NCBI GenBank assembly: GCA_038128265.1
Contig: JAYPJE010000082.1
Location: 1-14,437, forward strand
Direction of reading: 5' to 3'
DNA: 14,437 nt
Origin: Gemmatimonadota bacterium
Lineage (GTDB): Bacteria; Latescibacterota; UBA2968; UBA8231
Made by a program: the position numbers and the translations under genes
Shown: piece after piece, positions 1,780-8,442 of the stretch
How the letters are laid out: every line of letters begins with the position of its first letter
How positions within the stretch are numbered: position 1 is the stretch's first letter
The notes under the pieces: generated by a model
What the model was told of the DNA's origin: nothing
Seen by the model: only the letters and a program-made list of their open reading frames with translations
The model's database searches: none

Positions 1780-2406
1780 AGCGCCATATCCTCCGTTAAC
1801 CGCCCGCACTGGGGCGGCCCAAGCTAAACCATACCTTGCGCCGTATCCGCACGCTGGCGCCCTTGGAAATGCTCATAAATGTGTTCTTCAGGTAAAACAT
1901 ATCTGCACAGTTAAACCGACTCTCTAGCGCATCGCTGTCGATCATTCTCCGCTGGACATCCACCTGCACAAAGACGCAATCCTCGTCTATCAGGACCGCT
2001 GAAGCGACGTGGCGCACATAGCGCGTGCCCAATGAACCGCGCAGATTTTCTTTTCTCTCCAACTCGTACGGAATCCCGATGAGTTCTCTGCCGTAATGCG
2101 CCCTGTCGTATACGCGCTGTCGCAGCGCGCTGTCGCCTCGTGGCGCGTCCTCTTCCCACGCCCCTCCGTCTTCCAGCTCGCACGTAGATTCGTCGACGTA
2201 GTGGTGCGAACAGCACAGATAGTCACCCGTCACGTACTTGCCCAGCTCCTCGACGCCAGACTGACTCGTCTCGCCGTATACATCCGTCAGCATCGCATCG
2301 ATGGCGGGCAAGCCCGTCCAACTGCCTGCAATCGGCTCCTCGGATAGCAACAGGCTTGGCTCGTAGCCCATGACCTCCATCGCGCGACAGCAGAGGTTCA
2401 TATTCA
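983..2406. repeat. Tandem gene duplication with exact nucleotide blocks
   Basis: 34 bp ACCTTGCGCCGTATCCGCACGCTGGCGCCCTTGG at 983-1016 and 1833-1866; 32 bp CTCCATCGCGCGACAGCAGAGGTTCATATTCA at 1534-1565 and 2375-2406. Period about 840-850 bp. Confidence 0.95.
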
Positions 2407-2620
2407 GCCGCTCTTGGCCGGCGATGACCCGCCCCAGCGTATTGTTTGTAACGCTCAGTTCGCCCGCCAGTTGGGTCTGGCTCCAGCCGCGTGCGCGCAT
2501 CGCCTTAGACAGACGACTACCAATATGCCGCGAGTACTGCACATCTGTGAACTTGGGGGATTGACGGCCGCTGCGCGGCACCTTTTCCACGCTCTCTATC
2601 AACCCGTCGCGCACATCCAT
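1796..2620 (-). CDS. XRE/Cro-C1 HTH regulator with putative NTF2/SnoaL-like C-terminal domain (paralog 2)
   Basis: IGSRLSKAMRARGWSQTQLAGELSVTNNTLGRVIAGQ; colinear with paralog 1. Start moved to ATG 2620 (MDVRDG), with GGAGG at 2628-2632, 7 nt upstream. Confidence 0.8.
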   Translation of the reverse strand: MDVRDGLIESVEKVPRSGRQSPKFTDVQYSRHIGSRLSKAMRARGWSQTQLAGELSVTNNTLGRVIAGQERLNMNLCCRAMEVMGYEPSLLLSEEPIAGSWTGLPAIDAMLTDVYGETSQSGVEELGKYVTGDYLCCSHHYVDESTCELEDGGAWEEDAPRGDSALRQRVYDRAHYGRELIGIPYELERKENLRGSLGTRYVRHVASAVLIDEDCVFVQVDVQRRMIDSDALESRFNCADMFYLKNTFMSISKGASVRIRRKVWFSLGRPSAGG

Positions 2621-2884
2621 ATAGCATCCTCCAGTAGAATCTTTGAGTAGCGATCCCCTGTATAAGAAAACGGCTGCGACGGCGCAAGCTATTTTATGGA
2701 ACACTTAACGGGCACGTTCGACTGATTAACCCTGCGTATTGGACCCAAACCGCACTGCGCACAAACACGCCAAGCATTGCCTGCATCCTGCGGTGGCATA
2801 GATTCAGACAGGCATAGTAAATGCGGCATACGGCACCGCAGACCGATCTGCCTGTGGGGCGGGCTCGCACGAAAGAAATTCCAT

Positions 2885-3496
2885 ATGAGAAGTCGACCCG
2901 AGAATGGACATCGCCATTGGCGCCGACGCGCAGTGCAGCGGCTGTGGGGACTCGCCCTGCTGGTGCTGCCAGTGGCCTGCGCGGACGAAGGCGACCCATC
3001 CACTGGCGATGCGGTCGACTTTGCGCGCTGGACAAACCCCGTTACCGGTGCCGTTGTCGAGCTGCCCGAAGGCTGGCGCCACAGTCCGGACACGGCGGCC
3101 AGCGGCCGGACCGTCGTCGGCTACTTTCTGCCGCGCTACGCTTGGATGAAAGGCCAGTACGGCCATATCAGCCTGCACCGAGAAGACCTAGCGGACGCGC
3201 CCCTCAGCATTGAAGAGTACAGCGAGCGTCTAGTGGCCTATCTACAACCCCAAGCAGAAAGCGTTACGCAGACCGTCTTCGCCAAGGGTGCCGACGTAGA
3301 AAAGGCGCATTTTGAGGTAGAGACTATTTACCAGCGCAAACGCAAGGTGCTGCGCTGCCTGGTATGGACGCGCGGCGACGGCCACTTCTGGTACGCCATT
3401 ACCGAACTGCTGGCCAGCGACCGCGCGTTTATCGCCCAAGCCACGCCCGTCGTCGACCGACTTGTCGACAGCACGGCACCTATACCCGCACCTTAA
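2885..3496 (+). CDS. Putative lipoprotein of unknown function (possibly PsbP/DcrB-like fold)
   Basis: Basic N-terminus, then LWGLALLVLPVAC (lipobox-like VAC). AVVELPEGW resembles the PsbP/DcrB start motif. Start is ATG 2885 or GTG 2933, not 2777. Confidence 0.6.
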   Translation: MRSRPENGHRHWRRRAVQRLWGLALLVLPVACADEGDPSTGDAVDFARWTNPVTGAVVELPEGWRHSPDTAASGRTVVGYFLPRYAWMKGQYGHISLHREDLADAPLSIEEYSERLVAYLQPQAESVTQTVFAKGADVEKAHFEVETIYQRKRKVLRCLVWTRGDGHFWYAITELLASDRAFIAQATPVVDRLVDSTAPIPAP

Positions 3497-3926
3497 CGAC
3501 GACCTTTTTAACCGGCTGCGAGGCATCAATAGCCATGCCCGGCATATGCGCATCCTGCGGCTTTAGGATGGTGAAGTAGCCGGCGCGCAGCGTGTAAAAT
3601 TCGCCCTCGCCTTCCAGCGTATAGAAGTCTTTTTCCTCGTCGTAGGGGTTGGCCTGCATGCCCTCGACCGGGCGATAGCCCATGTGTTCAGCACCGGCGG
3701 CCACATACTGCACGTCGAGATAGGCGTGATGAGCCTCCCAGAAGCCCTCGCTCTTGGGCTTGGAATCGTATTCCTGCACCAGCGCATAAACCTCGTCGCC
3801 GTCTATGTCGTAGCGGTCGGGGGCTACCTGGCTAAAGTCCGTTTCCTGCAGGTAGCGCAGGGCCTTCTCAATGCCTGCGCCCAGCGCATAGTACTGCGCG
3901 GCATTTTTTAATTCATCGACAATCAT
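3480..3926 (-). CDS. YhcH/YjgK/YiaL (NanQ/TabA-like) family protein
   Basis: MIVDEL...KALRYL...RYDIDGDEVYALVQEY...WEAHHAYLDVQYV..GAE...PQDAHMP...VKKVVVKV. GGAGGA RBS at 3931-3936 supports ATG 3926. Confidence 0.92.
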   Translation of the reverse strand: MIVDELKNAAQYYALGAGIEKALRYLQETDFSQVAPDRYDIDGDEVYALVQEYDSKPKSEGFWEAHHAYLDVQYVAAGAEHMGYRPVEGMQANPYDEEKDFYTLEGEGEFYTLRAGYFTILKPQDAHMPGMAIDASQPVKKVVVKVRV

Positions 3927-4165
3927 TCTCTCCTCCATGGTGTATATGACCATCGCACGGGCGATGGAGCTGCTTGTAATGCCGTGGACCTTTCGCGCTA
4001 CTTCGCGCTATCCCGTGTGTAATAGGCGCTACAAAATGCCTCGAACGTTATACGCATAGACGCACCCTGTGCCGAGCGTCACCGCGCCCAACGCGGCGAA
4101 CATTCTACGCATAACTGCACGCCGACACAACTAGTTAATCCATCGCAAAAGCCCCGTCCCACCGC

Positions 4166-4182
4166 TTAGCACGCCTTTTGCA
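4166..4182 (+). promoter_or_regulatory. Possible degenerate sigma54 (-24/-12) promoter upstream of the peptide cassette
   Basis: TTAGCACGCCTTTTGCA versus consensus YTGGCACGNNNNTTGCW. Spacing is correct, but the first G of the conserved GG is A. Confidence 0.3.
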
Positions 4183-4230
4183 ACGCCCGCTCCCATCGGC
4201 ACGCACCGCACGCGACAGCGCTGGACGAAT

Positions 4231-5019
4231 ATGGGCGACACTGGTATAACACATCGCTTTTTGAGCAGCATTCCGCACAACGCAGAGGCGCGATGCGCCG
4301 CGCGTGTACCTCCCTGGAGGCTCGCTACTATCGTCTTCTGGCTGGTTGGGTTCGCGGTGCTGTCAGCCGTCGTCGCCGGTGGCTGCGCGCTCGGCATCTG
4401 GCACCTGTCGTCGCGTTACTCGATGCATCTGAACCACCAAGAAATGGCTTTTGCCGTTACCACATCGTCCTATGCGCTCTGCAGCGCAATGGGTCTGACT
4501 TTTATACTGCACCAGCTGAGAAAATCATCGCACTCACTGCGCGACCTGTGGGGTCCACCGACCCTGCGCGGGCGGCACATTGCGCTGGGCCTCGCCGCCG
4601 GCGCACTGCTGATGGGCATGCAGGCGTGGCTGCACGCGCTCTTGGCAGGCTTTCCCACGTCGCCGCCCTACGCCATGCGGATAGGCTGGCCACTGGCCCT
4701 GGCCATAGAGCTGCTGGTAAACGCCGTTTTCATTGGCTGCACTGAAGAAGTGCTCTTTCGCGGCGCCGTTTTCCGCACGCTGCAGGGGCGCTTTTCAAGC
4801 GGACCAGCCGTCGTCCTTTCCACCGCTCTATTCGCACTATTCCACTTTGACTACGCGCACAGCCTGCCAGCCATGACCTATGTCGTAGCCCTGGGCGTTT
4901 CGACGGCGCTGCTGTTGGTGCATACGCACTCGCTCAACGCCTCCGTCGCCCTGCACGCGGCCGGCAACGCGGCCGAGCGCCTGATACACTACGCGCCCTA
5001 CGCGCTGCCGCCGACCTAA
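4231..5019 (+). CDS. CPBP/Abi (type II CAAX) family intramembrane glutamic protease
   Basis: Motifs EEVLFRG, FALFH and HAAGN (EExxxR, FxxxH, HxxxN) in a polytopic membrane protein. Start uncertain. Confidence 0.92.
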   Translation: MGDTGITHRFLSSIPHNAEARCAARVPPWRLATIVFWLVGFAVLSAVVAGGCALGIWHLSSRYSMHLNHQEMAFAVTTSSYALCSAMGLTFILHQLRKSSHSLRDLWGPPTLRGRHIALGLAAGALLMGMQAWLHALLAGFPTSPPYAMRIGWPLALAIELLVNAVFIGCTEEVLFRGAVFRTLQGRFSSGPAVVLSTALFALFHFDYAHSLPAMTYVVALGVSTALLLVHTHSLNASVALHAAGNAAERLIHYAPYALPPT

Positions 5020-5025
5020 AGAGCC

Positions 5026-5640
5026 GTGCGAGACAAGACCATGCGCCAGGGAAATAAATGCGTTGAGCCGCCGCTCACCGCTGGGGATGCCAGCGCGAAC
5101 CAGAGACGTGCGATGGGGGGCATACTCCTACTGATAAGTGCCGTGGCGTTAGCGAGCAGCCTGTATGCCCTTGCACCGCCAGAAACTCGAGACGGCGCAC
5201 GCCGCCACTGGGCGGCCTGGTCTAAGGGTGCCCAATACAAAGGGCTGCAGGACGTCACGCTGCAGACGCATCGCACCAACTGCGGTCCGGCCGCCCTGCA
5301 CATGGCGCTGGCCCGGCTGGGCATTCACCGCCCACTGGAGGCGATCGAGGCGTCCACCGGCACCGACCGCAGCGGCACCTCGCTCTTTGCGCTGGGACGG
5401 TATGCCGAAGACCAGGGCGTAGGCGCAGCTCTATGGCACCTAAATATGGACGACCTGGTCGAGCGCAACCAACTGCCAGCCATCGCCTTTGTCGAGAACA
5501 ACCACTTTGTCGTCATCGACTCTATCGGGCACGGCGGTGACCTGTGGCTGCGCGATCCGGCCATTGGCCAACTGCACATGACGCGCGCGGCGTTTCAGCG
5601 CATATGGCAGGGCGAGGTCATCCTGCTCGACGCGCCGTAG
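5026..5640 (+). CDS. Stand-alone C39 cysteine peptidase with N-terminal membrane anchor/signal
   Basis: LQTHRTNCGPAAL (oxyanion Gln, catalytic Cys), GTSLFAL, NHFVVID (His), RDPAIG (Asp), FQRIWQG. Hydrophobic GGILLLISAVALASSLYALA follows RR. No ABC domain. Start may be 5026 or 5041. Confidence 0.92.
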   Translation: MRDKTMRQGNKCVEPPLTAGDASANQRRAMGGILLLISAVALASSLYALAPPETRDGARRHWAAWSKGAQYKGLQDVTLQTHRTNCGPAALHMALARLGIHRPLEAIEASTGTDRSGTSLFALGRYAEDQGVGAALWHLNMDDLVERNQLPAIAFVENNHFVVIDSIGHGGDLWLRDPAIGQLHMTRAAFQRIWQGEVILLDAP

Positions 5641-5645
5641 TCTTT

Positions 5646-6013
5646 TTCACCGTGTGGGGGAACGGCTGTTCTAACGACCGGTATTTCAAAGGAGCATTAC
5701 ATGATTAAACGCATCTGCAGCAGCTACGCGCTGGCGGCAGCCATGGCGATGGGACTCTTTGTCCAGAGCATCACGGCCAACCGCAGCGAGGTGATATCCC
5801 GGCCAATCTCGCTGTTGGAGGCACAGCATACAAAGGGCGCGGCCCTGGGCATTGTCACCATACCTTGGTCCGTTTACATCGCGGCCATAACCGTCGATGC
5901 CGCCTTTGTCGCGAGCATGGTAAACCTATTTATCGCATCGAGCGAAGCCGAAGAAAAATAGACCTTTCACGCGCACTCTAAGCGCTGACAAGTAGAGCGC
6001 TCCACACGGTGAA
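5646..6013. repeat. 12-bp perfect inverted repeat flanking the precursor gene
   Basis: TTCACCGTGTGG (5646-5657) is the exact reverse complement of CCACACGGTGAA (6002-6013). Confidence 0.9.
5701..5961 (+). CDS. Putative secreted peptide precursor: signal peptide + double-glycine-type (GA) leader + hydrophobic core
   Basis: Strong RBS AAAGGAG at 5688-5694. MIKR + hydrophobic stretch + ITA forms a signal peptide. ISLLEAQHTKGA matches the register of LSxxELxxIxG(G/A). Directly downstream of a C39 peptidase. Confidence 0.8.
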   Translation: MIKRICSSYALAAAMAMGLFVQSITANRSEVISRPISLLEAQHTKGAALGIVTIPWSVYIAAITVDAAFVASMVNLFIASSEAEEK

Positions 6014-6019
6014 TGGGCA

Positions 6020-6053
6020 GGGCTGTCGACCTCGGCAACGGGGTCGACAGCCC
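6020..6053 (+). other. Strong RNA stem-loop (15 bp, GCAA tetraloop) after the precursor gene
   Basis: GGGCTGTCGACCTCG-GCAA-CGGGGTCGACAGCCC gives 14 Watson-Crick pairs plus 1 G-U and a GNRA loop. No U-tract follows. Confidence 0.85.
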
Positions 6054-6118
6054 CGAGCCTAGCGGCGCTCCGCTACGCCGAGCAGCGCACGCACCCGCTT
6101 ACCGAAAGAGGCGAAACT

Positions 6119-6940
6119 ATGGAAATGAGAAACCGTTCATCAGGTAGCTTTATGAGTGACAGCGCGTTCACCCGCATGCTGAGCCTGCCTTTTGGCCACG
6201 TGCACGGCAGAGCGACCAGCGCGCTCCTGCTGTGCGCTTCCACTTACTTCTTGCTGCCTCAGCTCAGGCTCTCCGTTCAGCGCGCCTTCGCACTGAGCGA
6301 CTACGCCGCCGTCTTCCAGAACGCGCTGCCCTTTGCGCTGTTGTTGCTGTCGCTCTTAGCGTTTGCCCACATAGAACGCGTACCGCTCACGGCGCGCACA
6401 TTGGGCCTCTCTCTCGATATGCCGAACGAGCGAAAAAACTCCGTGCTCCTGTATGTCGGGATCATGGCGCTGGGCGGTTTGTGCATTGCCCTATTCCTGG
6501 GCTACTTCAAGCAACTGGGCATTCCCATACACCGCATCAGCACCTATATCGGCCAAGATGCTCCGCTGCTGCATGCGACCACCGATGCCAACAGCTGGCA
6601 CTCCCTGCTGCTCGACGTGCTGCCGCACTGCATAGGCGTTTTAGTGCTGGCACCCGTCATAGAAGAGATCTACATCACCGCTATCGTATTCCCCGTGCTG
6701 CGCAACAGGTTGGGCTTTGTCGCAAGCGCCGGCATTGCCGCTTCTATCTTTGCGCTATTTCACGCCAGCGCCAACCCACTAGCCGACGGGCAGTGGCTGC
6801 CCTTTGCCATCATTGCCGTCGGGCAGATCGCATCGTTCACGCTCTATCAGGGCACGCGATCGCTCTATCCATCCATCGCCTCGCACGCCCTGCGCAACTT
6901 TGCCGTCCTTTTTGTAGAGCTCAGCGCGCTCGTTGGATGA
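6119..6940 (+). CDS. Second CPBP/Abi family intramembrane protease (variant motif 1)
   Basis: LAPVIEEIYIT, FALFH, TRSLYPSIASHALRN; multiple TM segments; AGAGG upstream of ATG 6119. Confidence 0.88.
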   Translation: MEMRNRSSGSFMSDSAFTRMLSLPFGHVHGRATSALLLCASTYFLLPQLRLSVQRAFALSDYAAVFQNALPFALLLLSLLAFAHIERVPLTARTLGLSLDMPNERKNSVLLYVGIMALGGLCIALFLGYFKQLGIPIHRISTYIGQDAPLLHATTDANSWHSLLLDVLPHCIGVLVLAPVIEEIYITAIVFPVLRNRLGFVASAGIAASIFALFHASANPLADGQWLPFAIIAVGQIASFTLYQGTRSLYPSIASHALRNFAVLFVELSALVG

Positions 6941-6967
6941 CGCGCTGTGCGTGCGGTCGCGCCCGAC

Positions 6968-7873
6968 TCAAGCCTCGTCGCCGAGCCGAAAGTTGGCCAT
7001 GCCCTCGAGCACTTTTAGAATGGCTATGTGGTCTGCCTTGCCGTCGCCGTGCGCCAGGCAGCTATTGTAGAGCTGCCAAGCATTGGTCGCGTTGGGCAGC
7101 ACCATGCCCAGCTCCTTGGCCGCGCTGACGGCCAGTCCCAGATCCTTCTGCTGCAGCTCTACGCGAAAGCTCTGCTCAAAGTTCCGCTCTAGCATGCGCT
7201 GGCCGTGGTTTTCCAAAATGAGCGACTGGGCAGCGCCACCCATAAGAGCCTGGCGCACCCTGTGCGGGTCGGCTCCCGCTTTGGCGGCAAAGAGCAGCGC
7301 CTCGGCAACCGCCTCGACCGTAATACCGACGATAATTTGGTTGGCCACTTTGCACACCTGGCCATCGCCGTTGCGCGTGCCGATCAGCGTAACGGTGCTA
7401 CCCATTACCTCAAAGAGCGGCTTGATCTGTGCAAAGGTCGCTTCGGGACCGCCGACCATAATGGTCAGCTCGCCCGTTACGGCGCGGCCCGCCCCGCCCG
7501 AGACGGGCGCATCGAGATAGGCGCATCCCAGCGCGTTGATACGGCGAGCAAAGTCGACGGTAGCCGTTGGGGAGATCGAGCTCATATCGACGACCACCTT
7601 GCCGGGCTGCAGGCCGTTGGCCACGCCGTCTTCGGCAAAGAGCACCGTCTCCACGTCGGGCGTATCGGGCACCATCAACACGACGATATCGGCCGCCTCG
7701 GCCACTTCGCGATTGCTCGCCTTGACCACAGCACCACCGTCCAGTATCTCCTGCGGCAGCGGCGGATCAAAATGGACGACGACCAGATCGTAGCCGGCGC
7801 GCTGTAGGTTGAGCGCCATCGGACGACCCATAATGCCTAAACCGATAAAGCCTACGGTAGGTGTGTCGCTCAC
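6968..7873 (-). CDS. glxR: 2-hydroxy-3-oxopropionate (tartronate semialdehyde) reductase, beta-hydroxyacid dehydrogenase family
   Basis: GFIGLGIMG, MVPDTPDVE, DMSSISP, LDAPVSGG, GDGQVCKVANQIIV, KAGADP.RVRQALMGG and QKDL closely follow GlxR. The AGGAGG RBS overlaps the upstream TAG. Confidence 0.85.
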   Translation of the reverse strand: MSDTPTVGFIGLGIMGRPMALNLQRAGYDLVVVHFDPPLPQEILDGGAVVKASNREVAEAADIVVLMVPDTPDVETVLFAEDGVANGLQPGKVVVDMSSISPTATVDFARRINALGCAYLDAPVSGGAGRAVTGELTIMVGGPEATFAQIKPLFEVMGSTVTLIGTRNGDGQVCKVANQIIVGITVEAVAEALLFAAKAGADPHRVRQALMGGAAQSLILENHGQRMLERNFEQSFRVELQQKDLGLAVSAAKELGMVLPNATNAWQLYNSCLAHGDGKADHIAILKVLEGMANFRLGDEA

Positions 7874-7885
7874 GACCGCTGCCTC

Positions 7886-8305
7886 CTATAGATCGCCCTC
7901 TTCGGCGATGGTGTCCCAGCCGGCAATGCGCACGCTGTCCTCGATTTCACCGATGGCGATATTGGCAAAGGTCAGCGCCAGCGTGCCCTCTTCTAAGTGG
8001 CCGCCAAAACCGTTGCGCTCGTCGGAAAAGTCGATGTGACAATGCACTTTGCCATCGAGAATAAATCCATTGAACGAACAGATATCGAGCGGCTGAATGC
8101 TCTTGGGATAGCTCTCTTTGGGCGGCAGTTCGTTGCTCATCACCACGTGAAAATGCGAATGGCTGCAGGAACCGAAACCGGTCAGGATCAGTCCGTTTTT
8201 GATGCCGTGCTCCTGCACGGCCTGACGCAGGCCCAGCAAAATATCTTCGCCTGGCGCAATGCGCACCAGCACGACTCGCTGCATACTCGTCTCGCGCGAA
8301 ATCAC
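7886..8305 (-). CDS. PPC domain (DUF296 / AF0104-like) protein
   Basis: RIAPGEDIL, GFGS, HCHIDFSD and FGGHL motifs; AAAGGAGA RBS before GTG. Confidence 0.85.
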   Translation of the reverse strand: MISRETSMQRVVLVRIAPGEDILLGLRQAVQEHGIKNGLILTGFGSCSHSHFHVVMSNELPPKESYPKSIQPLDICSFNGFILDGKVHCHIDFSDERNGFGGHLEEGTLALTFANIAIGEIEDSVRIAGWDTIAEEGDL

Positions 8306-8442
8306 ATCCGTCTCCTTTGGTCACGCTTCACCGCGTCTATGCGGTGCAATGCATGGAATAGTAGCTGCTACGCAGCATAACATAACACGGTTATCTAGGC
8401 GACAACATGGCGGGTAAAAAACGGAGGGCGGATCTCGCGGAT

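Follow-up and report, generated by a model that had tools for sequence, protein, structure and literature searches.

Cleavage after a double-glycine leader is normally coupled to cytoplasmic PCAT exporters. Published C39 peptidases are described as PCAT domains, and in the two-step cases the PCAT acts first and an outside protease second (PMC10885120, in its accessible text). In the PCAT and AMS class II systems (LahT, PCAT1, ComA), the leader ends in GG, GA or GS and has hydrophobic residues at positions -12, -7 and -4, and the peptidase has the C39 fold and triad. For LahT150, the accessible part of the report gives positions -12, -7 and -4 as important, Thr at -4 as fully processed and Glu at -8 as dispensable (PMC6363468). 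Bacteroidetocin loci have a thiol oxidoreductase and membrane proteins by the peptide gene (PMC6671954, in part). The nap island of Neisseria (NapP, a C39 peptidase, with NapA/B/C and NapF) combines a free C39 bearing an export signal with small GG peptides, for which periplasmic cleavage is proposed; the paper also proposes a holin for inner-membrane passage and describes the Naps as cationic, with a FapF-like pore, and in the available portion of its supplementary file 1 "signal" is given only for NapF and NapP (PMC11798529). FapD of Pseudomonas is a periplasmic C39 with no transporter, encoded next to Sec substrates, and its catalytic function is required; it has a Sec signal peptide, its target is left open in the accessible text, and the substrates are fibre subunits with the FapF barrel (PMC5557850). 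FilB of Acinetobacter, compared here by NCBIfam name only, is also a transporter-less C39. SdpC of Bacillus subtilis, the precursor of SDP, has a secretion signal, a pro-region, a second processing step and a hydrophobic product of about 40 residues with a disulfide (PMC6818787, in part).

The loci described here share with one or another of these systems a leader ending in GG, GA or GS, the C39 fold and triad, membrane proteins (in most other clades also a thioredoxin) encoded by the peptide gene, a C39 with no transporter and, by prediction, a secretion signal, a pro-region, a second processing step and a hydrophobic product of about 40 residues. They differ in other respects. Unlike in the PCAT and bacteroidetocin systems, the C39 peptidase stands alone, with no ABC exporter joined to it, and carries a membrane anchor of its own. 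Unlike in class II double-glycine bacteriocins, a signal-like segment precedes the leader, the cores are mostly neutral or acidic and no family cut-off is reached. In contrast to the nap island, the precursor bears a signal-like segment, the C39 is anchored and a pore was not found in the genomes and neighbours searched; in contrast to Fap and Fil, the C39 scores far below the FapD and FilB models and best against the PCAT model. SdpC differs in being 203 amino acids long and in requiring SdpA and SdpB for processing, and the available part of that paper mentions neither C39 nor double-glycine motifs (PMC6818787); our general Pfam/NCBIfam scan of the proteins gave no match to SdpA, SdpB or SdpC. 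YknWXYZ protects against SDP (PMC4887032, in part), and Yip1-family neighbours occur here. Judged by its sequence, the cassette is outside both the PCAT bacteriocin and the Fap/Nap systems and would work like a hybrid of the two. The window, by which we mean the whole stretch of 14,437 nucleotides analysed, contains the following features.

3928..6965, + strand: complete cassette of CPBP, C39, precursor and CPBP genes, which occurs as a block or not at all
4231..5019, + strand: CPBP/Abi (Rce1-like) membrane protease 1
5026..5640, + strand: stand-alone C39 cysteine peptidase, 204 amino acids; the start may be the ATG at 5041
5646..5659, + strand: 5' arm of the inverted repeat on either side of the precursor gene; pairs with 6000-6013 over 14 contiguous positions
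5701..5961, + strand: precursor open reading frame, 86 amino acids
5701..5769, + strand: precursor residues 1-23, probable Sec signal peptide with a weak h-region, which may be an uncleaved anchor
5770..5841, + strand: precursor residues 24-47, putative pro-leader of double-glycine type, ending in G46-A47
5842..5961, + strand: precursor residues 48-86, predicted mature core of 39 amino acids, a hydrophobic helix with net charge -3 and no Cys
6000..6013, + strand: 3' arm of the inverted repeat, pairing with 5646-5659
6020..6053, + strand: hairpin of 15 bp immediately 3' of the repeat arm, no U-tail; similar ones in L035-L038
6119..6940, + strand: CPBP/Abi membrane protein 2, 3' of the precursor in all close loci

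The C39 protein matches PF03412 with an E-value of 3e-26 (92 bits, cut-off 22). It contains a single N-terminal hydrophobic or transmembrane anchor (around residues 31-49), lacks an ABC domain and has intact catalytic residues Q80, C86, H160 and D177. Its AlphaFold2 model (pLDDT 91.5) is most similar to LahT (PDB entry 6MPZ) according to Foldseek, with an r.m.s.d. of 1.2 Å across 128 columns. By profile, Cys-His-Asp triad and predicted papain-like fold, the window C39 is a member of Peptidase C39 (PF03412). It is the sole PF03412 match in G000 (an 84% complete genome) and is not fused to an ABC exporter. G004, G149, G151 and G156 have one C39 each as well, and G002 has a second, weak PF03412 match in a frame of 295 amino acids. 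In the genus, three of seven other genomes carry the C39; in the phylum search, the stand-alone form was present in 7/168 genomes.

The cassette behaves as a unit: in G006, of the same genus, flanks matching window positions 2987-3927 and 6966-8321 are separated by 128 bases and the cassette genes are absent. The first CPBP protein (PF02517, E 3e-17) has intact EExxxR, FxxxH and HxxxN sequences, which we take to be the CPBP motifs, and is accessory, not being found upstream in L033. The second (PF02517, E 2e-12) lacks the Arg of EExxxR, and in the alignment the His of FxxxH is replaced by Tyr in L036; it is therefore perhaps non-catalytic and may be a self-protection protein. Elsewhere in the window, two paralogous genes in tandem at 961-1809 and 1796-2704 (- strand), syntenic in genus relatives, encode XRE-type HTH proteins whose C-terminal domain is unannotated, and a conserved, probably exported protein of no known family is encoded at 2777-3496 (+ strand), with 70-87% identity in the same relatives.

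Used as a lone query against genome contigs, the C39 returned nothing, and loci were recovered only with an alignment as query; an ESM Atlas search gave generic C39 clusters. From the alignment searches we took 19 loci in genomes and, of 113 in metagenomes, the best 80; they divide into 57 short forms with profile scores of 119 or more and long forms scoring under 92, 28 of the latter PCAT-sized. Nearly all short forms have a hydrophobic segment before the catalytic Cys. In the full library, clustering at 50% identity left 179 representatives with E-values up to 1e-30. All of the best 150 profile matches are 345 amino acids or shorter, and of the members with 50 or more residues before the Cys, 106/114 have a segment of transmembrane strength there. 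These counts come from separate analyses that overlap and should not be added. Records of the subfamily are from Latescibacterota, Bacteroidota/Ignavibacteria and Acidobacteriota. We identified no cultured carrier, and in the plasmid collection no record covers 80% of any member. The literature searched, in which subscription journals are thinly covered, holds no description of this subfamily, and for stand-alone, periplasmic, secreted or anchored C39 peptidases only the FapD paper turned up. Separately, many long C39-like-domain proteins (500-1250 amino acids, not PCAT-sized, up to five per genome) are present in L006-L031, L141-L153 and L048-L049.

In the tree, the window C39 groups with other stand-alone forms, apart from the sampled PCATs; the tree does not establish an origin separate from FapD, because it has no FapD or FilB rows, its PCAT sample is narrow and its bootstrap is not settled.

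The pairing with a small precursor gene extends through the subfamily. An open reading frame encoding a signal, a double-glycine motif and a core lies no more than 1 kb 3' of the C39 gene in 43 of the 47 stand-alone loci that offer at least 600 bases for the search (10 that offer less were dropped), by a detection rule set post hoc, once the loci had been seen. After clustering at 90% and 70%, the counts are 35/39 and 23/25. The background is about 4%: the rule fires in 1/28 PCAT loci (a narrow sample, in which precursors may fall outside the stretch scanned), 306/8134 genome bins and 15/348 flank bins. At several loci it fired at a Gly pair other than that of the alignment. The four misses are L043 (precursor apparently frameshifted), L073 (GN), L078 (precursor visible by eye) and L096 (none found). 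A second C39 gene follows the first immediately in L096 (3965-4510).

We selected 41 family precursors by hand. The Gly at -2 is their only invariant column, and positions -2 and -1 are GG in 29, GA in seven, GS in two and other in three. Position -12 is L, I, M or V in 33/41 and position -8 is E or D in 25/41; at -7, L, M or V is found in 23 and A in eight. Several loci have tandem precursor pairs, and the cores are wholly different between clades. A profile of 34 precursors from other clades gives the window peptide 2.5 bits, does not list it among the 2462 matches from 63268 genome segments, and gives the other members of its clade 5.7-14.6 bits. The link of the window to the clearer signal peptides of other clades is thus the shared C39 and architecture and not peptide homology.

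The precursor frame itself was confirmed as present and looks coding. Differences from L036 are distributed 25/13/48 over the three codon positions, with the third dominating, and differences from L035 25/20/39, with the third again highest; a Shine-Dalgarno box precedes an identical ATG in all eight close loci. A homologue search with the peptide as lone query gave two near-identical proteins and nothing further, and an ESM Atlas search gave no usable match. The AlphaFold2 model of the precursor has low confidence (pLDDT 59.5).

The inverted repeat that brackets the precursor is found in all eight close loci, with 12-16 contiguous pairs and one G-C/A-U swap between sub-clades, and a strong hairpin comes after it; the repeat was not seen in other clades. 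An equally long perfect inverted repeat is present elsewhere in the region, so the bracketing repeat is supported by conservation only. When the energy of the whole duplex was compared with 200 shuffles, 63 were as low for the window, 78 for L035, 28 for L036 and 33 for L034, which is not significant, and none of 200 for L037-L040. The bracketing stem is possibly an RNase processing stalk that would stabilise the precursor message. A promoter scan of the region was uninformative. Other clades have a hairpin of about 118 bases immediately 5' of the precursor (among L041-L046 and L054-L093, e.g. L045:5514-5631 and L062:1294-1411), in which both partners of 15 of 24 pairs have changed. It matches 29 of the 44 other-clade loci searched, 15 of them used for training, none of the eight close loci and none of 13 PCAT loci. 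It has no Rfam match, and identity of this intergenic RNA with a c-di-GMP riboswitch was rejected on the same ground.

The first-pass annotation had placed a double-glycine leader in the precursor, with I36 at -12, S37 at -11, E40 at -8, A41 at -7 and T44 at -4 before G46-A47, and this register stands as proposed. I36, E40, A41 and G46 are invariant across nine close homologues; the -1 residue is A, S or G, and in five of the nine the motif ends in GG. The window precursor has GA preceded by hydrophobic or tolerated residues at -12, -7 and -4, Ala at -7 deviating from the Leu consensus and being the weak point of the leader. In the AlphaFold2 model, residues 38-48 are helical, with low confidence. 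The same annotation had expected a conserved leader and a variable core. That pattern is found between distant clades only; within the genus, the core is the most conserved part, with 25/32 and 22/30 residues identical, against 6/12 and 7/12 for residues 36-47. P55 and D66 of the core are invariant in the clade.

Our preferred reading, which we regard as probable, is export by Sec followed by periplasmic cleavage at GA, releasing the 39-residue hydrophobic peptide. Sec would carry the precursor through the inner membrane and signal peptidase I would trim roughly residues 1-23. The C39, whose anchor would run N-in/C-out and so place the catalytic domain in the periplasm, would bind the leader helix (residues 36-44) and cut after G46-A47, as motif, fold and gene pairing suggest, and the cut would free the 39-residue core, a hydrophobic helix. 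Most other clades encode a membrane-anchored thioredoxin immediately upstream, in some cases as one protein with the C39, and this would act on paired cysteines of the core; the window clade has neither core cysteines nor the upstream thioredoxin gene.

Given this route, the product may well be a membrane-active antagonistic peptide, comparable to Bacillus SDP or the class II bacteriocins, although we would stop short of calling this probable. The hydrophobic helix, the patchy distribution, the tandem precursors, the analogy with SdpC and YknW and the neighbouring CPBP, Yip1 and DrrA-like ABC genes, which would serve self-protection, argue for it. Yip1 neighbours number 25 open reading frames, the Yip1 neighbour being YknW-like at 77 bits, under the cut-off of 110; the DrrA-like ABC genes number 15 frames, and 15 loci have a downstream ABC ATPase. 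Against a toxin stand the 37 of 41 cores that are neutral or acidic, the conservation of the core within the genus and the failure to find an outer-membrane exit. The window precursor matches no Pfam or NCBIfam bacteriocin family, and none of its 41 relatives reaches such a cut-off (best PF10439, 20 bits against 27.1); the weak matches below cut-off are positioned as expected, N-termini on NprX/Phr signal regions and middles on PF10439, TIGR03949 and TIGR04149. Among published GG peptides accompanied by a free C39, the Naps come closest, and they are reported to have no antimicrobial activity in the accessible text (PMC11798529), and SilX, a CAAX protein in a bacteriocin locus, conferred no immunity in the part of the report available (PMC9298176).

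The same route might instead deliver a self-directed product with a structural, regulatory or signalling role, residues 50-79 staying in the membrane of the producer or acting as a pheromone. We consider this rather unlikely, if the strongest of the alternatives. It would suit an anionic core that is the most conserved part of the precursor within the genus, encoded in a single copy (no second copy was found in the 84% complete G000), with no outer-membrane pore gene found; the RNA elements suggest a separately stabilised, abundant message, and the Nap peptides act on their producer (PMC11798529, in part). It is harder to reconcile with cores that are wholly different between clades and often encoded in tandem pairs, with a patchy presence in the genus, including the empty site in G006, with the Abi, Yip1 and ABC-2 neighbours and with the weak similarity that several precursors show to class II bacteriocin models.

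All 41 family precursors have about 23 residues of n/h-type sequence ahead of the double-glycine leader. In the window precursor, a signal peptide is plausible but weak. The n-region has two K/R residues; the best 10-residue hydropathy, 2.14, is the fourth lowest among the 41 (the other precursors have a median of 3.05), and 15% of the genome's 2663 long open reading frames attain the same N-terminal values. The basic n-region fits the signal peptide of residues 1-26 annotated earlier, the h-region is weak, and the proposed cut after I-T-A is not supported. Residue 26 is Pro in P0001 (97% identical) and in eight of nine close-homologue rows. By the (-3,-1) rule of von Heijne for signal cleavage, position 26 passes in 1/9 rows, position 23 in 8/9, 18 in 9/9, 16 in 8/9 and 21 in 6/9. 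The 26/27 site was therefore rejected, and since positions 16 and 18 leave hardly any h-region, the first cut is probably at 23/24. It follows that the pro-leader comprises approximately residues 24-47 (24 residues), not 27-47; it might keep the core inactive, as the first-pass annotation proposed. Two stacked leaders with two-step processing, the central proposal of that annotation, are well supported by the transporter-less, signal-anchored C39 upstream, the 43 of 47 loci and the thioredoxin fusions, with the boundary so moved. A lipoprotein reading was rejected, as the Cys near position 20 is not conserved (we took the lipobox as the criterion), and reading of the precursor sequence gave no twin-arginine motif.

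Given a weak h-region, and a clade in which several candidate sites compete and A-x-A is not conserved, residues 1-23 might also be an uncleaved signal anchor, in which case the GA cut by the anchored C39 would alone free the core. In the family, 15/41 precursors have no strong site with Ala at -1 and 2/41 no site at all. Such one-step release seems improbable to us, given that the 23/24 site fits 8/9 close homologues, that a strong Ala -1 site is present in 26/41 family precursors and that the N-termini of L042 and L056 match the NprX signal region (E 1e-4 and 7e-3).

For the orientation of the peptidase under the preferred two-step route, we counted charges on both sides of the C39 anchor. 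The N-terminal side is richer in K/R in 34 of 40 distinct members, equal in four and poorer in two, with eight loci dropped (the pattern missed their Cys motif), two lacking an anchor and the remainder duplicates. The window C39 has two Arg before and three after its anchor, so its charges do not settle the topology; L036 is also reversed, and both count against the preferred reading. ResA/TlpA-type proteins face outward. A thioredoxin-like gene (a cluster of 39 open reading frames; AhpC-TSA, ResA-like) is found upstream in most other loci, and its product has an N-terminal hydrophobic segment and a CxxC motif in 17/17 inspected. AhpC-TSA domains are fused to the C39 in five of nine long matches tested; four of the five begin with one hydrophobic segment and, by reading, none has a second between the domains. 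These thioredoxin-C39 fusions (P0057, P0063, P0105, P0137 and P0122) fall in three places on the tree, with P0137 on a long branch and P0122 not included. The charge bias of the family and the fusions favour a C39 domain that would face the periplasm.

Cysteines are present in 34/41 cores, in even number in 32 of the 34. At 26 of the 34, a thioredoxin gene is in the locus, and six of the other eight have under 350 bases upstream. The seven Cys-free cores are all in the window clade, which lacks the thioredoxin gene; being confined to one clade, this association counts as one event and not as seven.

An inward-facing C39 that cuts in the cytoplasm, with the hydrophobic N-terminus belonging to one long leader and the core secreted by an ABC exporter encoded nearby or elsewhere (a split PCAT), would account for a C39 nearest to PCAT peptidase domains, for the 15 loci with a downstream ABC ATPase and for a window anchor whose charge bias is not N-in. 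We judge it very improbable: the window cassette has no ABC gene, the neighbouring ABC proteins are DrrA-like or lantibiotic-protection-like and not PCAT-like, the family shows a positive-inside bias, the ResA-like fusions lie behind one anchor and other clades have clear signal peptides. Periplasmic C39s are known in Fap and Fil systems, yet a fibre subunit processed by a FapD- or FilB-like protease is scarcely credible here, as the core is a short hydrophobic helix, the FapD model gives about 22 bits (cut-off 330) and the FilB model 32 (cut-off 475), the PCAT model scores best in 17/17 subfamily members, and PF13557 (FapF-like barrel) is absent from G000, G002, G004 and the 44 neighbour representatives and present but unlinked in G149 and G151. 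Among these, no gene for an outer-membrane exit was found. Unannotated exported proteins at L044:6492-7196 and L057:1619-2338 look barrel-like by eye and match no Pfam or NCBIfam family.

Under the two-step route, a C39 without attached transporter beside an exported peptide points to widespread extracytoplasmic maturation of small hydrophobic peptides in uncultured bacteria. We tentatively propose a class of peptides, spread over several phyla, that Sec exports and dedicated signal-anchored C39s process in the periplasm, with thioredoxin for disulfide-rich cores and precursor-specific RNA structures. If so, double-glycine proteolysis would have parted from ABC export in a lineage other than that of FapD, and uncultured Ignavibacteria/Bacteroidota, Acidobacteriota and Latescibacterota would be a large source of bioactive peptides overlooked by PCAT-based mining and by current family models. 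Because each locus combines a periplasm-type C39 with a single small substrate whose leader is canonical, two genes suffice to test which substrates periplasmic C39s accept. If the products are bioactive, an anchored C39, an upstream thioredoxin and the next open reading frame would form a genome-mining handle on peptides to which neither Pfam nor NCBIfam gives a name, and possibly a tool for peptide release in the periplasm.

Several further genes accompany the C39 in other loci. In L037-L040, a GT2-TPR glycosyltransferase gene (about 860 amino acids) is located directly upstream of the C39 gene, preceded by a transglutaminase-like gene (about 790 amino acids); the glycosyltransferase is also noted at L034:1509-4049. 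Their products could modify the peptide, and the window cassette is without both. At L045:7250-7750, and in six related open reading frames, a MauE/DoxX-like membrane protein is encoded downstream in Cys-rich loci, with a weak match to the RiPP maturation protein HvfX.
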